DNA of 64,000 nucleotides. Source: Rickettsia typhi (lineage in GTDB: Bacteria; Pseudomonadota; Alphaproteobacteria; Rickettsiales; UBA1997). The position numbers and the translations under genes were made by a program. Below are positions 1 to 48,187 of this stretch, piece after piece (within the stretch, counting starts at the first letter, position 1; the number at the start of each line of letters is the position of its first letter). The stretch is from positions 4,108 to 68,107 of the forward strand of contig CAMCAW010000001.1 in the NCBI GenBank assembly GCA_945872855.1, in the 5' to 3' direction. The notes under the pieces were generated by a model. The model made no database searches. It was not told the DNA's origin and saw only the letters and a program-made list of their open reading frames with translations.

Positions 1-944
1 TTAACTCTCTTGGTAAAAAATATTCAACTCTTCAAGATTTAATGTTTAATTCAAAGCTAACCGCTAAAGAATTAACCCCTGACTCAAAAGAACTCATCGC
101 TTATGATGGAAAAACTTTAGACCAAAATTCTGATGCAAAAAATGCTCAAGGTTTTTACGATAGAGAAACAGACACTTCTGCAATCAACATAGCCAAAAAC
201 CAATCGAATGCAGAAGTAGCAGGATCGTTATCGCATGAGAATTATCACGCTCAGGTTGATAATCAGGGAATGGCTTATTCGCAAGCTGAGGAGAATACGG
301 CGCATAATATTGGCGACTTCACAAAAAGCAGGTGGGATGTTTATCAGTCGGATAATACTGGTTTTCAGTTGACGCTTCCGACTGCGAATATTGCAACTAA
401 TTTTTATGCTAATAATGTTGCTTTTGGAGATGAAGTTAACCCTTTATTAGCAAATAAAATATTAAATGATAGTTTAAGATCTTCACCTTTTACTGAATCT
501 AGAATGCATCCTACTTTGGGCGTAGCAAGAGCTCATAAAGGTGGAGATTATTATACTTTAGGTAAAGATATATCTGTTCCAGCAGCTGGCGATGGAAATG
601 TAATAAAAGTTGGTTTTGATGAAACAATAAAGCGTGGGGAAGACGGTAAGGTTGTAAAAAGTGGTTGGGGAAATTATGTTACTATTCAGCACTATGATGA
701 AAATGACACTCCAACTTATCAAAGTCGTTATGCACACTTAGCGCAAAAGCCGAATCTTGAAGAAGGTAAGCCAATTAAAGAAGGGCAAGTGTTTGGAATT
801 ATGGGTGCAACCGGCGGTGTAAAAGGAGCGCATTTACACTATGAGGTTCTAAAACCCGCCTCTAAAGCTGGATCATGGATTCAAATCAATCCCGAAACAG
901 TAAATGTAGGAAAATATAATACTCGTGACGAAATACCAAAATAA
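1..944 (+). CDS. 3' part of a larger exported protein (open to the left window edge) ending in a peptidase M23 (LytM-type) domain; possible TpsA / polymorphic-toxin C-terminus
   Basis: Frame 3 has no stop between nt 3 and the listed ATG at 42, so the ORF enters from upstream. M23 zinc-ligand motifs are present in canonical order: HxxxD (H-KGG-D, nt 534-548) and HxH (HLHYE, nt 831-845). An HExxH string (HENYH, nt 234-248) lies upstream. Confidence 0.7.
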   Translation, partial: NSLGKKYSTLQDLMFNSKLTAKELTPDSKELIAYDGKTLDQNSDAKNAQGFYDRETDTSAINIAKNQSNAEVAGSLSHENYHAQVDNQGMAYSQAEENTAHNIGDFTKSRWDVYQSDNTGFQLTLPTANIATNFYANNVAFGDEVNPLLANKILNDSLRSSPFTESRMHPTLGVARAHKGGDYYTLGKDISVPAAGDGNVIKVGFDETIKRGEDGKVVKSGWGNYVTIQHYDENDTPTYQSRYAHLAQKPNLEEGKPIKEGQVFGIMGATGGVKGAHLHYEVLKPASKAGSWIQINPETVNVGKYNTRDEIPK

Positions 945-951
945 AAAAACA

Positions 952-1524
952 ATGAAAAACGTCTATAGATTATTCTTTTTAATTAACATTTTTTTAATTT
1001 TAACTGCATTCTCAGGCCTCAATAAAACTAGGTTAAAGCATGGAAATAATTTATATGAAATTCAGTATCCAGCTAATTGGGAAGTAGTTAAAAAAACATT
1101 GGTTAAAAATCATACTGATTATGAAATTGATAACAAGAATTTATCTAAAGAAAATAATATTAATCTTACAGATCTAAGTTTTAGGAATACGGACAAGGGA
1201 AGCCAAGCTGGAATAGTTAGTTTAGGAGATATAGATATATATTTCATAGAAAAAAAACCTAAAGAATCGTGTTCTTCTTTTTATCAAAAAAATAAAGAGA
1301 TTTCTCAATTTTATAAGAAAGATAAACAACTAGTTAATGGTAAAAAAATGGAAAAATGGATTAAAGAAAGTGAAGAAAAAAATTTAAAAATCTTTTTTAG
1401 CGTAAATGATACAAACTGTGTACTTTTCGAGCTTATCTCTGCTACTAGTAGTGCTGAAGAATTTAAAAAAATACAAAATGATTTTTATAAGATCATTAAT
1501 TCATTTCATATGATAAAAAATTAG
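952..1524 (+). CDS. hypothetical exported protein; candidate immunity/partner of the upstream M23 domain
   Basis: The ATG at 952 lies 8 nt after the upstream stop. The track start at 925 is a GTG overlapping the upstream gene. The N-terminus MKNVYRLFFLINIFLILTAFSG looks like a Sec signal or anchor. No family recognised. Very AT-rich. Confidence 0.45.
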   Translation: MKNVYRLFFLINIFLILTAFSGLNKTRLKHGNNLYEIQYPANWEVVKKTLVKNHTDYEIDNKNLSKENNINLTDLSFRNTDKGSQAGIVSLGDIDIYFIEKKPKESCSSFYQKNKEISQFYKKDKQLVNGKKMEKWIKESEEKNLKIFFSVNDTNCVLFELISATSSAEEFKKIQNDFYKIINSFHMIKN

Positions 1525-1644
1525 ATCAAAAACGTCACTAGAGAACTGCGAAAGGAGGCTTTAGTTTTGATTCAACTTCTCTCAACTTAAGGTGACCAAT
1601 AGAAAGTCATTCTGGGCTACATTCTGCACCAATTTGGAATCAAT

Positions 1645-2040
1645 ATGTTAAACCAAATTTACAATAATTATGCATATAAATTCATGAAAAAGTTTCTTAA
1701 ACAAAATTACGCATTACTCATAGTGCTTTCAATAACAATAGTTCTCACTGTTTTATCGAAAATCAATACTGCACTGGCTCTTGTCAATATATTTTTTGTA
1801 ATGTTGCAAATTTTTCTTTGGTGGAAAAGTAGCTTATATCGCAATATTTATATTAATTTTTTTATAATCTTATTTGCAGTTTTTGTATCCCTAATTTTTA
1901 TAGGATACGGCTTCGGCTCAGAAGAAAATGCTTTTAATTTTTTAATACCCTGTTTTTTCTTTTTATTGTTTCAAAGTATAATTTGGATATGGGTTAGTAT
2001 GGGTTTTTTAAGAAATTTATATACTTCTAAAATTAAATAA
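1645..2040 (+). CDS. small polytopic membrane protein, unknown function
   Basis: 131 aa with 3-4 hydrophobic helices (LLIVLSITIVLTVL, LALVNIFFVMLQIFLWW, FFIILFAVFVSLIFIGYGF, LIPCFFFLLFQSIIWIWV). No family recognised. Confidence 0.45.
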   Translation: MLNQIYNNYAYKFMKKFLKQNYALLIVLSITIVLTVLSKINTALALVNIFFVMLQIFLWWKSSLYRNIYINFFIILFAVFVSLIFIGYGFGSEENAFNFLIPCFFFLLFQSIIWIWVSMGFLRNLYTSKIK

Positions 2041-2178
2041 ATCCTTATGAGCAAAATATATAGTGCGCCCCAAAATTCAGACCAAAACCCCACAAAAAAT
2101 AATTTTTATTAAACTTCAGCAATAACCTGATACTGTCTTCAATGAATGATTTTTGAGGAGAATAAATAATGAACTATT

Positions 2179-2838
2179 ATGAATAAGTCATCGAATTTTT
2201 CTGTTAAAGGGGCACTACAAGAATATCTTACATTAATGCATGAAGTAGTGATTCGTCTTGAGCTAGCTTCAGAAGCATGTTATGGAAGACTTAACTTAAC
2301 CCCCATTTATGCTAGGGAATTTTGCTACTTACAGTTTAGATATATATGTGAACTGATAGCGCTAGGTTGCTTACAGCTTCATGGTGACTTGCCTATATCT
2401 CCTAAAAAATCTAAAAAGGAATGGCACGCCGAAAAAATAATGAATCAATTGCACAATGAATATCCGTATGCCTTTCCACAGAGTGTTACACGTCAATTTG
2501 GTGAAATAAACAGTATTATAGCAAATTCAAAGCCTAATGCGCTTACTAGAGAAGATTTTGAAAAGTTATATAAGGAATGTGGCGAAGTTCTTCACAAAGG
2601 AACAATTAAAAAAGTTAATGCTTCATTCCTAGGTAAAGAACCTGATTATAACAAAGTAATTGATTGGCATCATAAGCTGGTAAACCTAATGAATGAACAT
2701 TTAATAGTAAGATCTAATAAAAGAGAATTTTTTCTTATTTCTCTTAAAACTGAAGCAGGATATCCAGAAGGTAGTATTTGTACGCCTGATTTATCAGGTA
2801 ATCTGAACATAGAAACATTGAAAATGAATCTTGTGTAA
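2179..2838 (+). CDS. hypothetical cytoplasmic protein
   Basis: 219-aa ORF with no signal peptide or TM segment. Co-oriented between the exoprotein and the TpsB gene. No family recognised. Confidence 0.45.
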   Translation: MNKSSNFSVKGALQEYLTLMHEVVIRLELASEACYGRLNLTPIYAREFCYLQFRYICELIALGCLQLHGDLPISPKKSKKEWHAEKIMNQLHNEYPYAFPQSVTRQFGEINSIIANSKPNALTREDFEKLYKECGEVLHKGTIKKVNASFLGKEPDYNKVIDWHHKLVNLMNEHLIVRSNKREFFLISLKTEAGYPEGSICTPDLSGNLNIETLKMNLV

Positions 2839-2880
2839 ATTCAAACAGACATCTCATAATAAAAATCATTTAATATCGCA

Positions 2881-4701
2881 TTGAAAACATCACCTTCACT
2901 AAAAATGCTCCTCTTGGCACTTTCCCTAATGCAAATTACCGTTTGCGGGGCAAAAGCTCAAACCGCAGACCAAAACGCCATCAACCAACAAGATTGGATA
3001 ACGCGCCAACAGCAGAGCAAAATCGAAGAAGACCGCCGCTTGCGAGAGCAAGAAACAATCCGCAAAGAACGCACTCGCAAGAAAAAACAAGTTGAGCAAG
3101 AAGGTAAAAATCAAACCCCAATCTCAGGAAAACCAGCCGAATGCTTCCCAATAAAATCAATCAATCTTGTTGACGCTAGCTCGATTTCAAAACGAGAGCA
3201 GAAAAAACTTGCCACACCATTCATCGGCAAGTGCGTTGAAGCAAAAACTTTAACAGAAATAATCACCGCAATTCAAACTTTTTACAACAACGAAGGATAC
3301 GTAACAGCGCGCGTTTTTGTGCCAAAGCAAAATATTCAAAGCGGCAATTTAGAACTAAAAATTCTAGAAGGAAAAATTGATGAGATCATTGTGGGCGATA
3401 ATAATTTCACCGATAAAATGCAGGAATTTACTGCTTTTGGTTTTATGGAGGGGGATAGGCTGAATCTTGAAGATATAAATCAGGGAATTTATCAGATGAA
3501 CCGCCTTCAATCAAACAGCGCCACCATGAAAATTGAGCCTGCTGCAATTGAGGGCGAAGCCAAAGTTTATATCGCCAACCAAAAGAAATTTCCGGCGCGC
3601 GCAACAGTTGGTTATGATAATTTAGGAAATGAATTTACCGGAATTCACAGAACCAATTTTTCTGGCGGTTTAGATAATTTACTTTTCTTGAATGATGCGA
3701 TAAACCTAAGCTATTCAACGAATCTCAATGATGACAGCCAAGCCAAAGACATAAAATCTTTCACCTCAGGCATCTCAATTCCATTTAGCTATAACACTTT
3801 ATCTTACGATTATTCGAGATCGGAATTTCGCGGCACAAACCAAGGAATTAGCGGGCCAATTCGCTTAACTGGTTTTTCTGAGCGCAACAATGCCACAATC
3901 GATCGCGTTCTTTTAAACAAGGGAAATTTGCGAATTTCAACCAATGCTTCGCTTACTACAAAATCATCGGCCAGCTATTTGAATGGTGAAAAAATTGAAA
4001 CTTCTGAGCGCAAATTAACCATTGGAAATATTGGATTCACTATTTCTAATTACTTCAAAAACGGTGCTAATCTTTATCTCAAGCCTTCTTATTACAAGGG
4101 CCTCAAGCTATTAAACGCCAAGCAAGATGAAACAAATTTAACCAGCGACACGCCAAAAGCGCAGTTCGATTATTTCAAGCTTTACGCCTCAATTTCCAAG
4201 CGATTCACAATTCCTAAAGCCGAAATTCCGTTTACGCTTTCAACGGAAATAGACAGCCAATATTCTAAGCAAACGCTTTTTGGAACAGAGCAGTTTTCGG
4301 TGGGCGGATATTATTCGGTGCGAGGATTTCGTGAAAATTATATCACGGGCGATTCGGGCTATTACTTTCGCAACAAACTTAATTTTAACTTAGGCAGCTT
4401 AGTGCCCACTAGTTGGAAGTTTAAAAAAGAAAATGAAACCGCCGCCATTGGCACAAATTTTCTTTACCTGAATAATTTTGCCATTGAGCCATTTTACGAT
4501 TATGGCTATGTCAAAAATAAATATATAAACAGCGGAGCCAATGGCAGGCTTGCTGGCGCTGGCGTAAAAACCATTTTTAACAGCAGATATTTCAACGCCT
4601 CGCTAACTTATTCTTGGGCAACCGATCATTCTCGCTTGGTCACTTCAACCACAAAAGAAAACAAGCTGGTTTATTTTGAAATTAGCGCGAATTGCTGTTG
4701 A
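2881..4701 (+). CDS. ShlB/FhaC/HecB-family two-partner-secretion outer-membrane transporter (TpsB)
   Basis: Signal peptide, then a charged QQ/RK-rich linker. A POTRA-like block follows: CFPIKSINLVD...LTEIITAIQTFYNNEGYVTARVFVPKQNIQSGNLELKILEGKIDEI. The rest is a long beta-barrel region. Start may be the TTG at 2881 or the ATG at 2905. Confidence 0.9.
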   Translation: MKTSPSLKMLLLALSLMQITVCGAKAQTADQNAINQQDWITRQQQSKIEEDRRLREQETIRKERTRKKKQVEQEGKNQTPISGKPAECFPIKSINLVDASSISKREQKKLATPFIGKCVEAKTLTEIITAIQTFYNNEGYVTARVFVPKQNIQSGNLELKILEGKIDEIIVGDNNFTDKMQEFTAFGFMEGDRLNLEDINQGIYQMNRLQSNSATMKIEPAAIEGEAKVYIANQKKFPARATVGYDNLGNEFTGIHRTNFSGGLDNLLFLNDAINLSYSTNLNDDSQAKDIKSFTSGISIPFSYNTLSYDYSRSEFRGTNQGISGPIRLTGFSERNNATIDRVLLNKGNLRISTNASLTTKSSASYLNGEKIETSERKLTIGNIGFTISNYFKNGANLYLKPSYYKGLKLLNAKQDETNLTSDTPKAQFDYFKLYASISKRFTIPKAEIPFTLSTEIDSQYSKQTLFGTEQFSVGGYYSVRGFRENYITGDSGYYFRNKLNFNLGSLVPTSWKFKKENETAAIGTNFLYLNNFAIEPFYDYGYVKNKYINSGANGRLAGAGVKTIFNSRYFNASLTYSWATDHSRLVTSTTKENKLVYFEISANCC

Positions 4702-4814
4702 GCAAAATTGCTTTCAGAGCTATTCAAACCAGAAAAATCTTTTTGCAAATAACCGTTAAAAATTAAAATTCTCCAACTAGAATTTGCTGCAATATTATCA
4801 ATCCTCTCAAACTT

Positions 4815-5348
4815 ATGGACATCTCAAAAATCTCAATCGGAAAAAACGCGCCGCATCAAGTTAACGTTATTATCGAAGTGCCAATGAACGCCTCCGACCC
4901 CGTAAAATACGAGATGGACAAAGATTCTGGCGCAATTTTCGTCGATCGATTTATCGCAACTCCAATGTATTACCCGTGTAATTATGGCTTCGTGCCGCAC
5001 ACGCTTTCTGATGATGGCGATCCTTGCGACGTGCTTGTGGTATCAGATTTTCCCGTGGTTCCCGGTGCTGTTATTGCCGCAAAACCAGTGGGAGTTTTGA
5101 TTATGGAAGACGAAAAAGGCATGGACGAAAAAATTATTGCCGTGCCTGCGATGAAGCTAAATTCTCAGTTCGAAGCTATCGAATCTTATGAAGAATTGCC
5201 AGAAAATTTAATCGCAAAAATCTCACATTTCTTTGAGCATTATAAAGATTTAGAGAAGGGAAAATGGGTGAAAGTTAAAGGCTTTGAAGGCGCCACAAAG
5301 GCTCGCCAACTGATTGAAGAAGGAATGAAGCGCTTAGAATCAAAGTAG
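4815..5348 (+). CDS. ppa: inorganic pyrophosphatase (family I)
   Basis: 177 aa; DRFIATPMYYPCNYGFVPHTLSDDGDPCDVLV signature region. Confidence 0.95.
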   Translation: MDISKISIGKNAPHQVNVIIEVPMNASDPVKYEMDKDSGAIFVDRFIATPMYYPCNYGFVPHTLSDDGDPCDVLVVSDFPVVPGAVIAAKPVGVLIMEDEKGMDEKIIAVPAMKLNSQFEAIESYEELPENLIAKISHFFEHYKDLEKGKWVKVKGFEGATKARQLIEEGMKRLESK

Positions 5349-8118: not shown

Positions 8119-8751
8119 ATGAAAAAAATTTTATTGGCAATTCCAAAAGGTCGCATTCTTGAAGAATTGATTCCGTTATTCACTAAAAATGGCTTGCAAC
8201 CAGAAAAAGATTTCTTCAACGAAAACTCGCGCAAGCTAGTATTTGCAACGAATTTCAAGAATCTTGAAATTGTAAAAGTGCGCAGTTTCGATGTCGCAAC
8301 TTTTGTAAAATTTGGCGCGGCAGATTTAGGAATTTGCGGCAAAGATGTGCTTGAAGAATTCTCTTCGCAAGAAATTTTCCCTGTGCTAGATTTAGGAATT
8401 GGCAAATGTCGTTTATCGGTGGCGGCGAAAGAATCTTCGCAGTTGAATTTGCAAAATATTAGTCATATTCGCGTTGCTACAAAATATAGTGAAATTGCTA
8501 AAAAATATTTTGCAGAAAATGGTGTGCAGGCTGAAGCCATTAAGCTCAACGGTTCAATAGAGATTGCGCCGCAACTTGGTTTGTGCGATTTTATTTTAGA
8601 TTTAGTGAGTAGTGGAAAAACGTTGGTTGAAAATAACATGGTTGAATTAACAAAAATTATGGATGTAAGCTCTTATTTAATTGTTAATCGCGCGTCGTTT
8701 AAAACTAAAAATGTTGAAGTTAATAAGTTAATCGCGCTATTTAAATCTTAA
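8119..8751 (+). CDS. hisG: ATP phosphoribosyltransferase, short form
   Basis: LAIPKGRILEE..., SFDVATFVKFGAADLGICGKDVLEE, VATKYSEIAKKYF, LNGSIEIAPQLGLCDFILDLVSSGKTLVEN. 210 aa, which is HisG-short length. Confidence 0.92.
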   Translation: MKKILLAIPKGRILEELIPLFTKNGLQPEKDFFNENSRKLVFATNFKNLEIVKVRSFDVATFVKFGAADLGICGKDVLEEFSSQEIFPVLDLGIGKCRLSVAAKESSQLNLQNISHIRVATKYSEIAKKYFAENGVQAEAIKLNGSIEIAPQLGLCDFILDLVSSGKTLVENNMVELTKIMDVSSYLIVNRASFKTKNVEVNKLIALFKS

Positions 8752-17651: not shown

Positions 17652-18971
17652 TTAATTATAAAATTCTGCCGCTTCGCGATTAGTGGTGATTTTTTTGAAA
17701 TCGATCGAGCTAATAAAAACACTATCGAGCGAACGGGCGCGAGACAGTGCGACATAAGCCTGCCCAGCACTAAAAATATTTGATAAATCACAAGAAATTT
17801 TATCCAATGTTAGGCCTTGCGATTTGTGAATTGTGATCGCCCAAGATAGAATTAGCGGAATTTGCGTGACTCCCGCCTCAGTTACAATTTGCCTACTATC
17901 GTGATCGAACCTGTCAATAAGCCACTCCTCGGGTGCAATAGTAAGAATTTTTCCATTAGCAAATTCTACCACGGGATAAAATTTTTTTGGTGAAAAATCT
18001 TGCACTACGCCAAGCGAGCCATTAATAATTCCTTCTTTTTGGTAAGTATTTTTAATCATCATAACCTGCGCTCCAACCTTTAGTTTCAAGCTTTCAACCG
18101 CTAGACAATTTTTGCGCAACAGCTCAACTTTATTCATCTCGCCAAAATATTTTGCCTCAAAAGATTTTTCTTCGCGGGGAATTTTTTTTAATTCAAATTC
18201 ATTAATTTGCGCCGCTTTTACGTTATGGCTCGTGAGTATTGTTGGCTTAATTGCAAGATCGTCATCAGTGGCTTTAAGCCTTAATTCTAGATGCTTCACA
18301 TCATCTTCATCTAAATTTCCGAAGCGCAAATTATTTAAAATTTTGATGAATTTTTTATCATGTTGGCGAAAAATTTCTTTGAGGATAAAAGTTTGCAAAT
18401 GAAGGTTTTTCCAACTTTGTGAGGTGAAGCAAAAATTTTGCGTTTCATCGCCATATCTAGTGATTGGAGCCAGTTGTAAAAAATCGCCGAAAAGCAGCAT
18501 TTGCAAGCCTCCGAATGGTTTATCATTTTCGCGAACGGCGCGAAAAACTTGATCAAGAATTTCAAATAAATTTGCCGAAATCATCGAAATTTCATCGATG
18601 GCTAAAATACGAGTTTCTTTGATGCGACGCCTGATTTTGCTGAATTTTCCGCTAAATAAATTGGCAATAATTTGCTCTATTGGAAGATTAGCAAGGCCAA
18701 TTCCCGCCCAAGAATGAATAGTGCTGCCGCCAATATTAACCGCAGCAATCCCTGTGCTGGCAGTAACCGCAAGGCCAAGCCTGCTATAATGACGCTTCAA
18801 ATAATTGAGCAAAAAAGATTTCCCTGTGCCAGCGCCGCCAGTAACCAAAATGTTTGAGCCTTGAGATATTTCGTGGATAACGAGTTTTTGTTCATCAGAT
18901 AAGAGCTCTTGCTCAGCGTGAGTGAAGATGTCGGGGAGCATGTTTGAGGTGGCTGGTTGTTCAACCCCCAC
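17652..18971 (-). CDS. PIF1/RecD-like superfamily 1B DNA helicase
   Basis: Walker A VTGGAGTGKSFLL, motif II LAIDEISMI, LLFGDFLQLAP, and C-terminal TIHKSQGLTLD...AYVALSRA. Confidence 0.8.
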   Translation of the reverse strand: MGVEQPATSNMLPDIFTHAEQELLSDEQKLVIHEISQGSNILVTGGAGTGKSFLLNYLKRHYSRLGLAVTASTGIAAVNIGGSTIHSWAGIGLANLPIEQIIANLFSGKFSKIRRRIKETRILAIDEISMISANLFEILDQVFRAVRENDKPFGGLQMLLFGDFLQLAPITRYGDETQNFCFTSQSWKNLHLQTFILKEIFRQHDKKFIKILNNLRFGNLDEDDVKHLELRLKATDDDLAIKPTILTSHNVKAAQINEFELKKIPREEKSFEAKYFGEMNKVELLRKNCLAVESLKLKVGAQVMMIKNTYQKEGIINGSLGVVQDFSPKKFYPVVEFANGKILTIAPEEWLIDRFDHDSRQIVTEAGVTQIPLILSWAITIHKSQGLTLDKISCDLSNIFSAGQAYVALSRARSLDSVFISSIDFKKITTNREAAEFYN

Positions 18972-46555: not shown

Positions 46556-48187
46556 CTAGTTTTTGCAAACGCTCAGCCCTTTGTCATCAAGCTCAACTCC
46601 AGCGCAATCTAAAAGCGAATAAAACAAGTTATCATGCGATAATTTTTCCTCAGTTTTTTGCGCTGCATTGCTAAATTTTTTGCGATAAAAGTTTTGCGCC
46701 ATCAATTTATCCGACATCCATAAAAACATTGGAACCTTGTGGTAAGGCCCGCCAACGCTATCTTCGGGGCCATGATAATAAATCCCATCTTCACCCAAAA
46801 ACTGCCCATGATCTGAAATATAAATCAGCAAAGCATTTTGTTTTTTTAGCTCATTTACAACGGATTCGATAAAAAAATCAGTGTAAGCAACGCTGTTATC
46901 GTAAGAGTTTATAATTTGTTGCTGCGTGCATTTGGTTAAATCTTTATTGCCGCAAATTGGTGTAAAAATTTTGAAATTATCGGGATAGCGATCGTCAAAT
47001 AAAAAGTGACTTCCTTGCATGTGTAAAATTGTAAAACTATCGCCAGCCCTTGCTAGATCTCGCTTGAGATCATCTAGCAAATATTCATCATAAACCATGT
47101 GATCGCCAATTCTTTTGGCAATTGTGTCATTAAAATGATATTGTTGCGCTTCAGAAGCTAGCAATATCAAGCCATTGTCATCGCCAAAAGCTTTTTGCGC
47201 CGAGAAAAATGAGGTAGAAAATTTTAACTTTTCGAAAATTTTAATGATGGACTCTTCGTCGGTTGGCAGCTTGAAGTCTTGCGCGGCCTTGTGGGACAAC
47301 ATGCAATCAACAGAATAAATGGTAAGATTTCTGCAAGGAGTTACGTTTTTAAAACTAAGAAAATCGTGGATTTTTTTTATGCGTGGCGTCGTGTCGCGCT
47401 CATAGCTGTTAATGGAGAAATTCTTAGAGCGCGCTGATTCGCCAATTATCAACACCACTTTTAAATTTTGAGGTTTATGTTTAGAAATCGCAGTTTTTAC
47501 AACATCATTTATAGGCAATAATTTTGGTTTGTTTTTGAGTGAAGTATAAATTTCGTTATAGTAGCCGAGATAGGTTTCTATTGGCCCCGTCGGTGGATAA
47601 GAAAAAATTATTCCACTTCTATTTTGATGTTTGAAGAATGATAAAACTACCGCAAAAATAAAAAATATCGCGGCAATAAAAAATAATATTTTACGATTTT
47701 TATTTTTCGTAATTTTGATTTTGCCGAGTAAAATCAAGGGTAGTGCGATGAATAACGCGAAATAAATTATTCCACTTTTGATAGTTACGACATCATTAAA
47801 ATTTCCAATATTATCGAGAGTATTAGCAATAACAACTCGATCGATCAAAATATGAAACTCATTGAGCGCGTAAGATGCGATGAGTGATAAAAGCAGAAGT
47901 GGAATCGTGAATAATGCCAGCAAAAATTTGTTAAAACTGCAGCAATAAAGGAAGACGAAAACCAGAAAATAATTGAGCGATATTTCTAAAAACCATAGAG
48001 CAATTTTTCTGCCATCAAAGCCCGAAGCGAGCGCCACAGAAAGCTTTTGTGCCAATAGTGGAAAGTTGCAAAAGATAGTAATTATCGCGGCAAAAATTAA
48101 GCAGGTAAAAGTTTGCGAGAGTTTGATTTTGCTGGAGAAAATTGATTTTAACATTCGAGATATTTTTGAATTATTGGGGCGGGCCAT
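46556..48187 (-). CDS. phosphoethanolamine transferase (EptA-like, sulfatase superfamily)
   Basis: Five N-terminal TM helices. Periplasmic domain with VVLIIGESARSKNFSINSYERDTTP and ISDHGQFLGE. Confidence 0.85.
   Translation of the reverse strand: MARPNNSKISRMLKSIFSSKIKLSQTFTCLIFAAIITIFCNFPLLAQKLSVALASGFDGRKIALWFLEISLNYFLVFVFLYCCSFNKFLLALFTIPLLLLSLIASYALNEFHILIDRVVIANTLDNIGNFNDVVTIKSGIIYFALFIALPLILLGKIKITKNKNRKILFFIAAIFFIFAVVLSFFKHQNRSGIIFSYPPTGPIETYLGYYNEIYTSLKNKPKLLPINDVVKTAISKHKPQNLKVVLIIGESARSKNFSINSYERDTTPRIKKIHDFLSFKNVTPCRNLTIYSVDCMLSHKAAQDFKLPTDEESIIKIFEKLKFSTSFFSAQKAFGDDNGLILLASEAQQYHFNDTIAKRIGDHMVYDEYLLDDLKRDLARAGDSFTILHMQGSHFLFDDRYPDNFKIFTPICGNKDLTKCTQQQIINSYDNSVAYTDFFIESVVNELKKQNALLIYISDHGQFLGEDGIYYHGPEDSVGGPYHKVPMFLWMSDKLMAQNFYRKKFSNAAQKTEEKLSHDNLFYSLLDCAGVELDDKGLSVCKN

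Follow-up and report, generated by a model that had tools for sequence, protein, structure and literature searches.

The window analysed here is a 64,000-nucleotide (64-kb) stretch of contig CAMCAW010000001.1 from an assembly labelled Rickettsia typhi (GCA_945872855.1). Its first 4,701 nucleotides encode a candidate locus for contact-dependent inhibition (CDI) by two-partner secretion (TPS), in which an exoprotein (TpsA) ending in an M23 peptidase is paired with a transporter (TpsB). All five co-oriented open reading frames (ORFs) claimed by an original prediction, which was made from the sequence alone, were found (Table 1). The exoprotein ORF indeed enters from the left edge, frame 3 being open from base 3 to a stop at 942-944, and the HxxxD (534-548, CAT AAA GGT GGA GAT) and HxH (831-839, CAT TTA CAC) motifs of the peptidase lie where they had been placed. 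The small exported ORF behind it starts at 952 and has a signal-like N-terminus, as described, although the gap between the two genes is 7 nucleotides and not 8. Hydropathy agrees with the third product being a small membrane protein with about four helices; the fourth, described as a cytoplasmic unknown, has neither a hydrophobic segment nor a family match. The last ORF is a clear TpsB of the ShlB/FhaC family (Pfam: ShlB, E = 1.9e-68; POTRA_2, E = 3.8e-21; POTRA_3, E = 3.4e-14), in which VRGF and FYDYG, presumably the conserved loop-6 and barrel motifs of TpsB, can be read. Chance is excluded as the source of the five-ORF arrangement. An island of low GC content (27-32%, window 833-2832) spans the three small ORFs together with the end of the tip and lies between the tpsA body (41-47%) and tpsB (~37-41%), which suggests an exchanged cassette region. 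A promoter and terminator scan of window 1-5000 gave nothing above shuffled expectation.

Table 1. Features of the candidate CDI locus, in positions of the window (aa, amino acids).
Feature	Position	Strand	Basis
3' end of the conserved tpsA part: pre-toxin module up to the FGDEVNPLL boundary (423-449)	3-449	+	Homology to the TpsAs of L005 and L006
HENYH (HExxH) motif of the pre-toxin module, then conserved AEENTAHNIG	234-248	+	Read from the sequence
Variable C-terminal toxin domain (CT), 164 aa plus stop, M23 zinc metallopeptidase	450-944	+	Pfam, NCBIfam, PDB, fold model
Candidate cognate immunity protein, 190 aa, exported (signal-like N-terminus)	952-1524	+	Position, family HMM, hydropathy
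Small protein, 131 aa, ~4 predicted membrane helices	1645-2040 (called from 1684 on L003)	+	Hydropathy
Soluble protein, 219 aa, without family match	2179-2838	+	Pfam, NCBIfam and PDB negative
TpsB/CdiB-type Omp85 transporter: signal peptide, two POTRA domains, ShlB barrel	2881-4701, probable ATG 2905	+	Pfam

An ENA metagenome contig (L003), retrieved by an exact match to the 190-aa protein, supplies the sequence to the left of the window. Over 11,524 shared bases (~11.5 kb) the two are 100% identical, and L003 reaches 4,168 bases further left, with base 1 of the window corresponding to its base 4169. On L003 the ORF with the M23 domain is called at 1,578 aa and could span at most ~1,608 codons, while the tpsB call starts at the ATG at window 2905. 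The repeats of filamentous haemagglutinin (FHA) type that the original prediction expected upstream in the same ORF are present before the M23 domain, as six stretches of Fil_haemagg_2 (PF13332, E = 1.8e-34).

When species-representative genomes were scanned with the L003 ORF, seven loci came up. Six belong to metagenome-assembled genomes (MAGs) labelled Rickettsiales or 'Rickettsia typhi', a taxonomy that rests on record titles and gene content (giant VirB6/TrbL paralogues and a Ulp1-like protease); the seventh, L011, is labelled Rhizobium. Complete TpsAs with a TPS domain are encoded by L006 (2,720 codons) and L011 (2,358 codons), and the TpsA of L005 runs off the contig end. Behind each sister TpsA come two to four small ORFs, with a TpsB of ~600 aa after them. 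The TpsB of the window is 82-85% identical to those of L005, L006 and L011, which are 91-93% identical to one another, and all four have the gene order A-I-O-B. The sister loci thus support the claim of a CDI-like polymorphic-toxin TPS locus with an M23 payload, since they combine TpsAs bearing a TPS domain and a similar TpsB with different tips behind a common boundary.

That boundary is the motif FG(D/N)xVNPL, and the module in front of it contains an HExxH motif. TpsAs with the pre-toxin module of the window are 67-77% identical through it and diverge abruptly after FG(D/N)xVNPL; the window module itself is 67-74% identical to the TpsAs of L005 and L006 over its first ~136-142 residues and diverges thereafter. 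Behind the boundary lie a tuberculosis-necrotizing-toxin (TNT) domain in L006, Ntox10 in L005, the M23 domain in the window and a second M23 subtype in L001 and L016. In L005 the ORF directly after the Ntox10 tip matches Imm27 of Pfam (E = 8e-21), which marks the first downstream position as the immunity slot. From these sequences, the TpsA of the family appears to consist of a signal peptide and TPS domain, haemagglutinin repeats, the HExxH pre-toxin module, FG(D/N)xVNPL and an exchangeable toxin.

The likeness to Burkholderia-type loci drawn in the original prediction does not extend to the boundary or to the accessory gene. The Burkholderia-type boundary motif is Nx(E/Q)LYN; the junction in the window is neither this nor VENN, and the pre-toxin module, of neither the VENN nor the Burkholderia type, appears by sequence to be new. 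No BcpO-like accessory protein is conserved, as the ORFs between A and B are unlike across the loci except for one Imm27-like pair (L005 and L009). The classical DUF637 with '...ENNAL' is found before the tips, themselves without a Pfam match, of L011 (12401-13945) and L009 (6403-7737), so that two pre-toxin types occur on otherwise homologous TpsA/TpsB loci.

The HExxH module could be a self-releasing zincin, which is speculative. Matches to DUF6782, a 'putative metallopeptidase', are weak (16.7-17.7 bits against a cut-off of 27, four of nine module sequences, best E = 8e-4), and the sole PDB profile match, an HtpX homologue aligned on HExxH, is not significant (E = 1). The glutamate of the motif is replaced by glycine in L005 (HGNYH, residue ~1949 of the TpsA), and the spacing is HExxxH in L007 (HEAIGH, in the TpsA tail) and in the related protein P0073. 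If the module is a peptidase, not every family member would be active. In the AlphaFold model of the 313-aa fragment encoded in the window, the pre-toxin part has a predicted local distance difference test (pLDDT) below 50.

The tip itself is a confident match to Peptidase_M23 (PF01551; 55 bits against a cut-off of 28.7, E = 9.6e-15). The five M23 catalytic residues are H178/D182, H245 and H277/H279 in the numbering of the 313-aa fragment, H245 being the third catalytic histidine (YAHL, 735-737). In an alignment of 18 M23 sequences all five occupy nearly invariant columns, and they are invariant in a 9-sequence alignment of the subfamily, of which a C-terminal NPxxxNxGxY extension is characteristic. 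The AlphaFold model of the domain has block-mean pLDDT values of ~77-93, and Foldseek matches it with probability 1.00 to ShyA, EnpA and LytM (TM-score up to 0.80, normalised to the target) and further to a Vibrio zinc peptidase and lysostaphin. Sequence matches in the PDB are Csd3, ShyA, zoocin A and lysostaphin. The best partial matches in NCBIfam are the DD-endopeptidases ShyC, ShyA and MepM, far below their equivalog thresholds. By these comparisons the tip seems most similar to the peptidoglycan DD-endopeptidases ShyA, MepM and Csd3, from which cleavage of peptidoglycan cross-links and a corresponding bond specificity might be extrapolated. The two M23 tips are short (164 and 181 aa) and lack a hydrophobic stretch, which is consistent with lack of a cytoplasm-entry domain; in the TNT (244 aa) and Ntox10 (219 aa) tips the N-terminal part is more hydrophobic.

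When the 164-aa tip by itself was searched exhaustively with HMMER against 1.84 billion representative proteins, a small set of relatives, at ~38-48% identity and covering the whole tip, stood out above the mass of housekeeping M23 proteins. Three of them (P0066, P0071 and P0072) have DUF637 and/or PT-VENN of Pfam directly before the M23 domain, reading '...GQRVGQNAVENNLLYDQLLGD...', and P0063 has by eye the same ...NAVENNLL junction. P0062 combines the window-type module with 'FGDEVNPLM'. P0064, P0065 and P0073 (loci L018, L019 and L017) are stand-alone proteins of 400-470 aa in which a related HExxH-type module precedes the same M23 subtype, with a signal-like hydrophobic N-terminus in P0065 and P0073; the module and the tip may travel together outside TPS proteins. 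Judged from its sequence neighbours, the M23 subtype of the window appears to be a mobile toxin module that is also carried by canonical VENN-type CdiA proteins.

The contigs of the relatives are short and show the contexts of orphan arrays. L014 (1-4808) encodes three small ORFs, a VENN-M23 orphan, a 195-aa ORF, a further FHA-like fragment and a lipoprotein. On L016 (1-2325), the type-2 M23 tip and its 190-aa lipoprotein are followed by the tip of P0062 and the beginning of a further exported protein, and on L001 (136-2555) a 3' tpsA fragment with a type-2 M23 tip and a 190-aa lipoprotein lies beside a secretin gene. The orphan tip/immunity modules of L001, L014 and L016 are away from any tpsB. 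A scan of metagenome contigs with an alignment of the VENN-linked M23 tips returned 80 loci. None of them held an intact TpsA-M23: all were generic housekeeping M23 genes, with identities up to 40% and ORFs no longer than 740 aa, and the one VENN-like junction, '[AVG]ENN' in a 452-aa ORF, is a chance match. In the very large assembly GCA_013572995.1, a full-length DUF772/DDE transposase (L015, 1683-3101) directly follows P0062, an orphan M23 tip. Tip modules and insertion sequences seem to go together.

The N-terminal TPS domain that the original prediction expected in the same ORF, and whose lack it regarded as counting against itself, is absent from the L003 ORF, as is a signal peptide; in this part the finding speaks against it. 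A stop at nucleotide ~286 of L003 limits extension of the ORF to the left. DNA homology to the intact relatives starts at L003 nucleotides ~316-323, and the 5' sequence before this point is unrelated. At the contig edge (L003 1-375) lies a 53-codon ORF on the minus strand, whose 'LEDLV...' N-terminus may resemble that of transposases of the IS5/IS1182 type; a Pfam scan of the 53-aa fragment gave no match. Used as a query, the TPS-bearing first 1,010 residues of a sister TpsA retrieved P0211, a protein of 1,030 aa with a TPS domain, whose source types (NCBI and ENA) are those of the proteins of the window. After '...YIKSGGSL' at its end come 13 unrelated residues and then a stop. The L003 ORF starts with '...ATGSL' and then 'TITRNGSTT...', while the intact L005 ORF at that point reads '...YIKSGGSLTVTRNGSTT...'. 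Residues 437-1021 of P0211 align to L005 1-585 and the L003 ORF aligns to L005 579-2026, so the two tile one gene of ~2,600 codons with a single break point at L005 residues 579-585. 'GSL' is present on both sides of the break, as a target-site duplication would give. On balance these observations lean towards a tpsA gene that is split in this strain by an inserted element ~4.2 kb upstream of the window. The M23 weapon would then probably be disarmed here, its TPS/secretion half being separated from the repeat-toxin half; the immunity gene and tpsB are intact.

The strongest rival takes this decay further and treats the M23 ORF as an unexpressed 3' pseudogene. The immunity genes, and perhaps tpsB, would be kept by selection as a defence against M23-armed neighbours, with no toxin delivered in the population. 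This would account for an ORF that has neither a TPS domain nor a signal peptide, for the unrelated sequence and stop upstream of it, and for P0211 ending at the same point. It would also fit surveys of Rickettsiales, in which pseudogenised haemagglutinin-like toxins and an excess of lone antidotes are described (PMC11077975). Such a relic is nonetheless considered rather unlikely. The 3' fragment of ~1,600 codons has no internal stop or frameshift, its M23 catalytic residues are intact, and the likewise intact tpsB is 82-85% identical to its relatives, which suggests that any insertion is recent or polymorphic. Besides, the split may be an assembly artefact.

The proposal that the exported product of 952-1524 is a periplasmic immunity factor gains from genetic linkage, as a family of exported proteins follows the same M23 subtype elsewhere and makes this protein a good candidate. 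It has a hydrophobic signal-like segment at residues 3-25. Its only homologues in a set of 5.8 billion proteins are itself and one 78%-identical fragment, and the family was recovered through the gene neighbourhoods of related tips. The genes after these tips (L014_195, L020_224, L016_110p and L013_41p) all begin with a signal peptide or lipobox and share the motif 'Y-x-I-x-Y-P...W' near the N-terminus and, in full-length members, '(Y/H)KIINS' near the C-terminus. A hidden Markov model (HMM) built from those four, with the window protein left out, finds the ORF of the window at E = 4.8e-9 and the next ORF at 0.046 among 664 ORFs (the window plus the fetched loci). The other M23 subtype (L001, L015 and L016) comes with a 190-aa lipoprotein of its own, and the L001 copy is 75-76% identical to those of L015/L016. 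A single immunity family common to both subtypes was considered and dropped, the direct comparison giving E = 0.035; divergent toxin/immunity pairs are expected to differ as these lipoproteins do. Both M23 candidate immunity proteins are exported, as a periplasmic toxin requires, and the first ORFs after the TNT and Ntox10 tips have, by eye, no hydrophobic N-terminus. Taken together, the 952-1524 product is likely to be the immunity protein to the M23 tip.

Little can be added from known families. The match of the 190-aa protein to PsbP (PF01789) is borderline (23.6 bits against 23.5) and occurs in one of six family members, and a PDB search gave no match. A 229-aa lipoprotein of L011 was rejected as a family member: it shows IKLIKPSDW and a ...IINSI tail by eye, but does not score with the family HMM and reaches only 0.09 with PsbP_2. 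The 131-aa and 219-aa proteins have no match in Pfam, NCBIfam or the PDB and no counterpart in the sister loci. Their genes appear to be specific to this locus, and each is possibly an orphan immunity gene.

One of these two proteins might instead be the cognate immunity protein, the 190-aa protein being an accessory such as a BcpO-like lipoprotein helper or a chaperone. Burkholderia-type loci have an extra small gene between I and B, and the structure prediction for the 190-aa protein yields no usable model. Yet on other contigs it is only the 190-aa family that recurs beside related M23 tips, none of the sister loci encodes a counterpart of the 131-aa or the 219-aa protein, and Imm27 holds the first downstream position in L005. 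This assignment is accordingly regarded as improbable.

The weakest rival, which is very improbable, denies any interbacterial role: the M23 domain would remodel the wall of the producer at the secretion site or serve as an adhesin-linked enzyme of life in the host, with 952-1524 an unrelated periplasmic protein, as might be argued from the prevalence of housekeeping wall hydrolases among M23 enzymes, the MepM-like nature of most database matches and the host-associated look of the genome (two giant VirB6/TrbL paralogues, a Ulp1-like protease), but the domain occupies the exact slot of TNT or of Ntox10 (then Imm27) in the sister loci, its closest relatives stand behind VENN pre-toxin domains, a dedicated family of exported proteins co-occurs downstream, and arrays of orphan tips with lipoproteins (L014, L016) are a hallmark of polymorphic toxin systems.

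The interpretation favoured here, with a probability of roughly 75%, is that window 1-4701 represents the 3' two-thirds of a type Vb (TPS) CDI locus in the order tpsA, immunity gene, two unrelated small ORFs and tpsB, with an M23 tip and a split tpsA. By analogy with CdiA/CdiB biology, TpsB would export the TpsA filament through the TPS domain, and upon contact with a neighbouring Gram-negative cell and its receptor the C-terminal region would cross the outer membrane of the target. The M23 tip would be freed in the target periplasm and cut peptidoglycan cross-links like ShyA or MepM, without needing an inner-membrane entry step. In a sibling, the exported 190-aa product would bind and block the peptidase in the periplasm and thereby protect the cell. 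We infer the delivery route, the periplasmic site of action, the bond specificity and immunity by direct binding from this comparison.

Several points weigh against a CDI locus of this kind. No readable sequence of this strain has a TPS domain contiguous with the M23 ORF, and P0211, the candidate 5' half, is not tied to this genome. The split of tpsA could be a chimera of metagenome assembly, and the inserted sequence is only possibly transposase-like, the 53-aa fragment having no Pfam match. An intact TpsA that unites a TPS domain and an M23 tip was not found, every M23-tipped example being a fragment, an orphan module or part of a short contig. Between the proteins that lie downstream of the two M23 subtypes, no similarity is detectable (E = 0.035). 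Finally, the single-sequence AlphaFold model of the 190-aa protein has a pLDDT of 46, and the PsbP match stands at the threshold in one member only.

Among the known systems, CdiB/CdiA/CdiI of E. coli EC93 is alike in the Omp85 transporter with POTRA domains, the giant haemagglutinin-repeat exoprotein and the TPS domain (in the sister loci), as well as in the conserved boundary with exchangeable toxins, the immunity gene next to it and the orphan modules (L001, L014, L016). The sister loci L011 and L009 even have DUF637 and ...ENNAL. The order of genes is B-A-I in that system and A-I-x-x-B in the window, and the boundary is DUF637/PT-VENN in CdiA and FGxxVNPL after the HExxH module here. CDI systems of this kind were reviewed by Willett et al. 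in 2015, as cited in PMC9111745. Pore-formers are, besides nucleases, the other well-studied class of CdiA tips. To our knowledge, the known CdiA toxins act inside the target cell or on its inner membrane, and the open debate on CDI is largely about how a tip gets through both membranes of the target. One that has to reach the periplasm only would separate the outer-membrane step of delivery from the inner-membrane step. The CdiA tips discussed in the rickettsial literature are nucleases, such as the tRNA-targeting prototype (PMC11077975); unlike these, the tip of the window is a predicted periplasm-acting peptidase with an exported candidate immunity protein.

Burkholderia-type CDI loci (bcpAIOB) share the order exoprotein, immunity gene, extra small ORF(s) and transporter. 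The window differs from them in the lack of the Nx(E/Q)LYN boundary and of a BcpO equivalent and in its lineage, which is alphaproteobacterial and Rickettsiales-like.

M23 peptidases are employed by other weapons. In A. baumannii, the predicted type VI secretion system (T6SS) peptidoglycan-hydrolase effectors Tpe4, Tpe18 and Tpe24 contain M23 (PMC6833914), and M23-domain X-Tfe effectors are known from bacteria-killing type IV secretion systems (X-T4SS; PMC6536674). As is proposed for the window, these bring an M23 peptidase to the periplasm of a competitor and are paired with an immunity protein, but the delivery machine and the carrier domains are others, and such effectors are not among the nearest relatives examined, which are linked to VENN or to the HExxH module. 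Lysostaphin, zoocin A, ShyA, MepM and Csd3 have the same fold and catalytic residues as the tip, and the first two likewise kill competitors. They are free-standing enzymes with targeting or regulatory domains of their own, whereas in the window the catalytic domain alone forms the tip of a TPS protein; the NPxxxNxGxY extension sets the M23 subfamily of the window apart from the bacteriocin and housekeeping M23 enzymes.

The closest parallel by lineage is provided by the rickettsial CRCT/CRCA modules (Verhoeve et al. 2022, PMC9111745; PMC11077975), in which a polymorphic C-terminal toxin and its antidote are likewise carried by large, often pseudogenised haemagglutinin-like proteins; both these modules and the locus of the window are read as interbacterial antagonism inside hosts. 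The papers on CRCT/CRCA do not mention M23, and the lineage of the window differs in having an intact TpsB adjoining the toxin gene as well as an M23 tip. A CDI-like payload in a host-associated genome, called unexpected in the original prediction, is not so, as CDI-like toxins of host-associated Rickettsiales have already been discussed (PMC9111745, PMC11077975). The cdiB gene was reported to be absent from Rickettsiales genomes (PMC11077975), with which the TpsB genes in the window and in several Rickettsiales-labelled MAGs disagree. Intact TpsBs in such MAGs bear on the conflict of endosymbionts inside hosts.

The statement that an M23 payload is undescribed for TPS/CDI systems still holds to the extent that no report was found in the open-access literature, although absence there is no proof. 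Among tips that target the wall, the accessible part of a large polymorphic-toxin catalogue includes NlpC/P60, L,D-peptidase and glycohydrolase domains, and 'M23' does not occur in it (PMC3482391). The recurrence of the M23 tip with an exported partner behind canonical VENN motifs in metagenomes would point to a new family of inhibitors for M23 peptidases. A bolder and tentative reading, doubtful as a whole, sees a new CDI branch that combines a peptidoglycan endopeptidase payload stopping in the periplasm, a new exported immunity family, a zincin-like HExxH module that replaces DUF637/VENN, may cleave off its own tip and occurs also in the stand-alone P0064, P0065 and P0073, and a true CdiB in Rickettsiales.

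Elsewhere in the 64-kb window, a 622-aa protein (13522-15390, plus strand) contains a Ulp1-like Peptidase_C48 domain (E = 1.2e-7), a deSUMOylase/deubiquitinase fold of eukaryotic type, as is typical of effectors that target a eukaryotic host. Two proteins of 1006 and 1921 aa (8751-11771 and 26318-32083, both on the plus strand) have VirB6/TrbL domains; an expansion of VirB6 paralogues is a typical feature of rvh, the type IV secretion system of Rickettsiales. ARAGORN found no tRNA or tmRNA gene over the whole 64 kb. A PIF1-like helicase (17652-18971, minus strand, E = 2.3e-42) is unusual for a small host-associated genome. Finally, an EptA/EptB-like phosphoethanolamine transferase with Sulfatase and EptA_B_N domains (46556-48187, minus strand) suggests a potential for modification of lipid A or the lipopolysaccharide (LPS) core.

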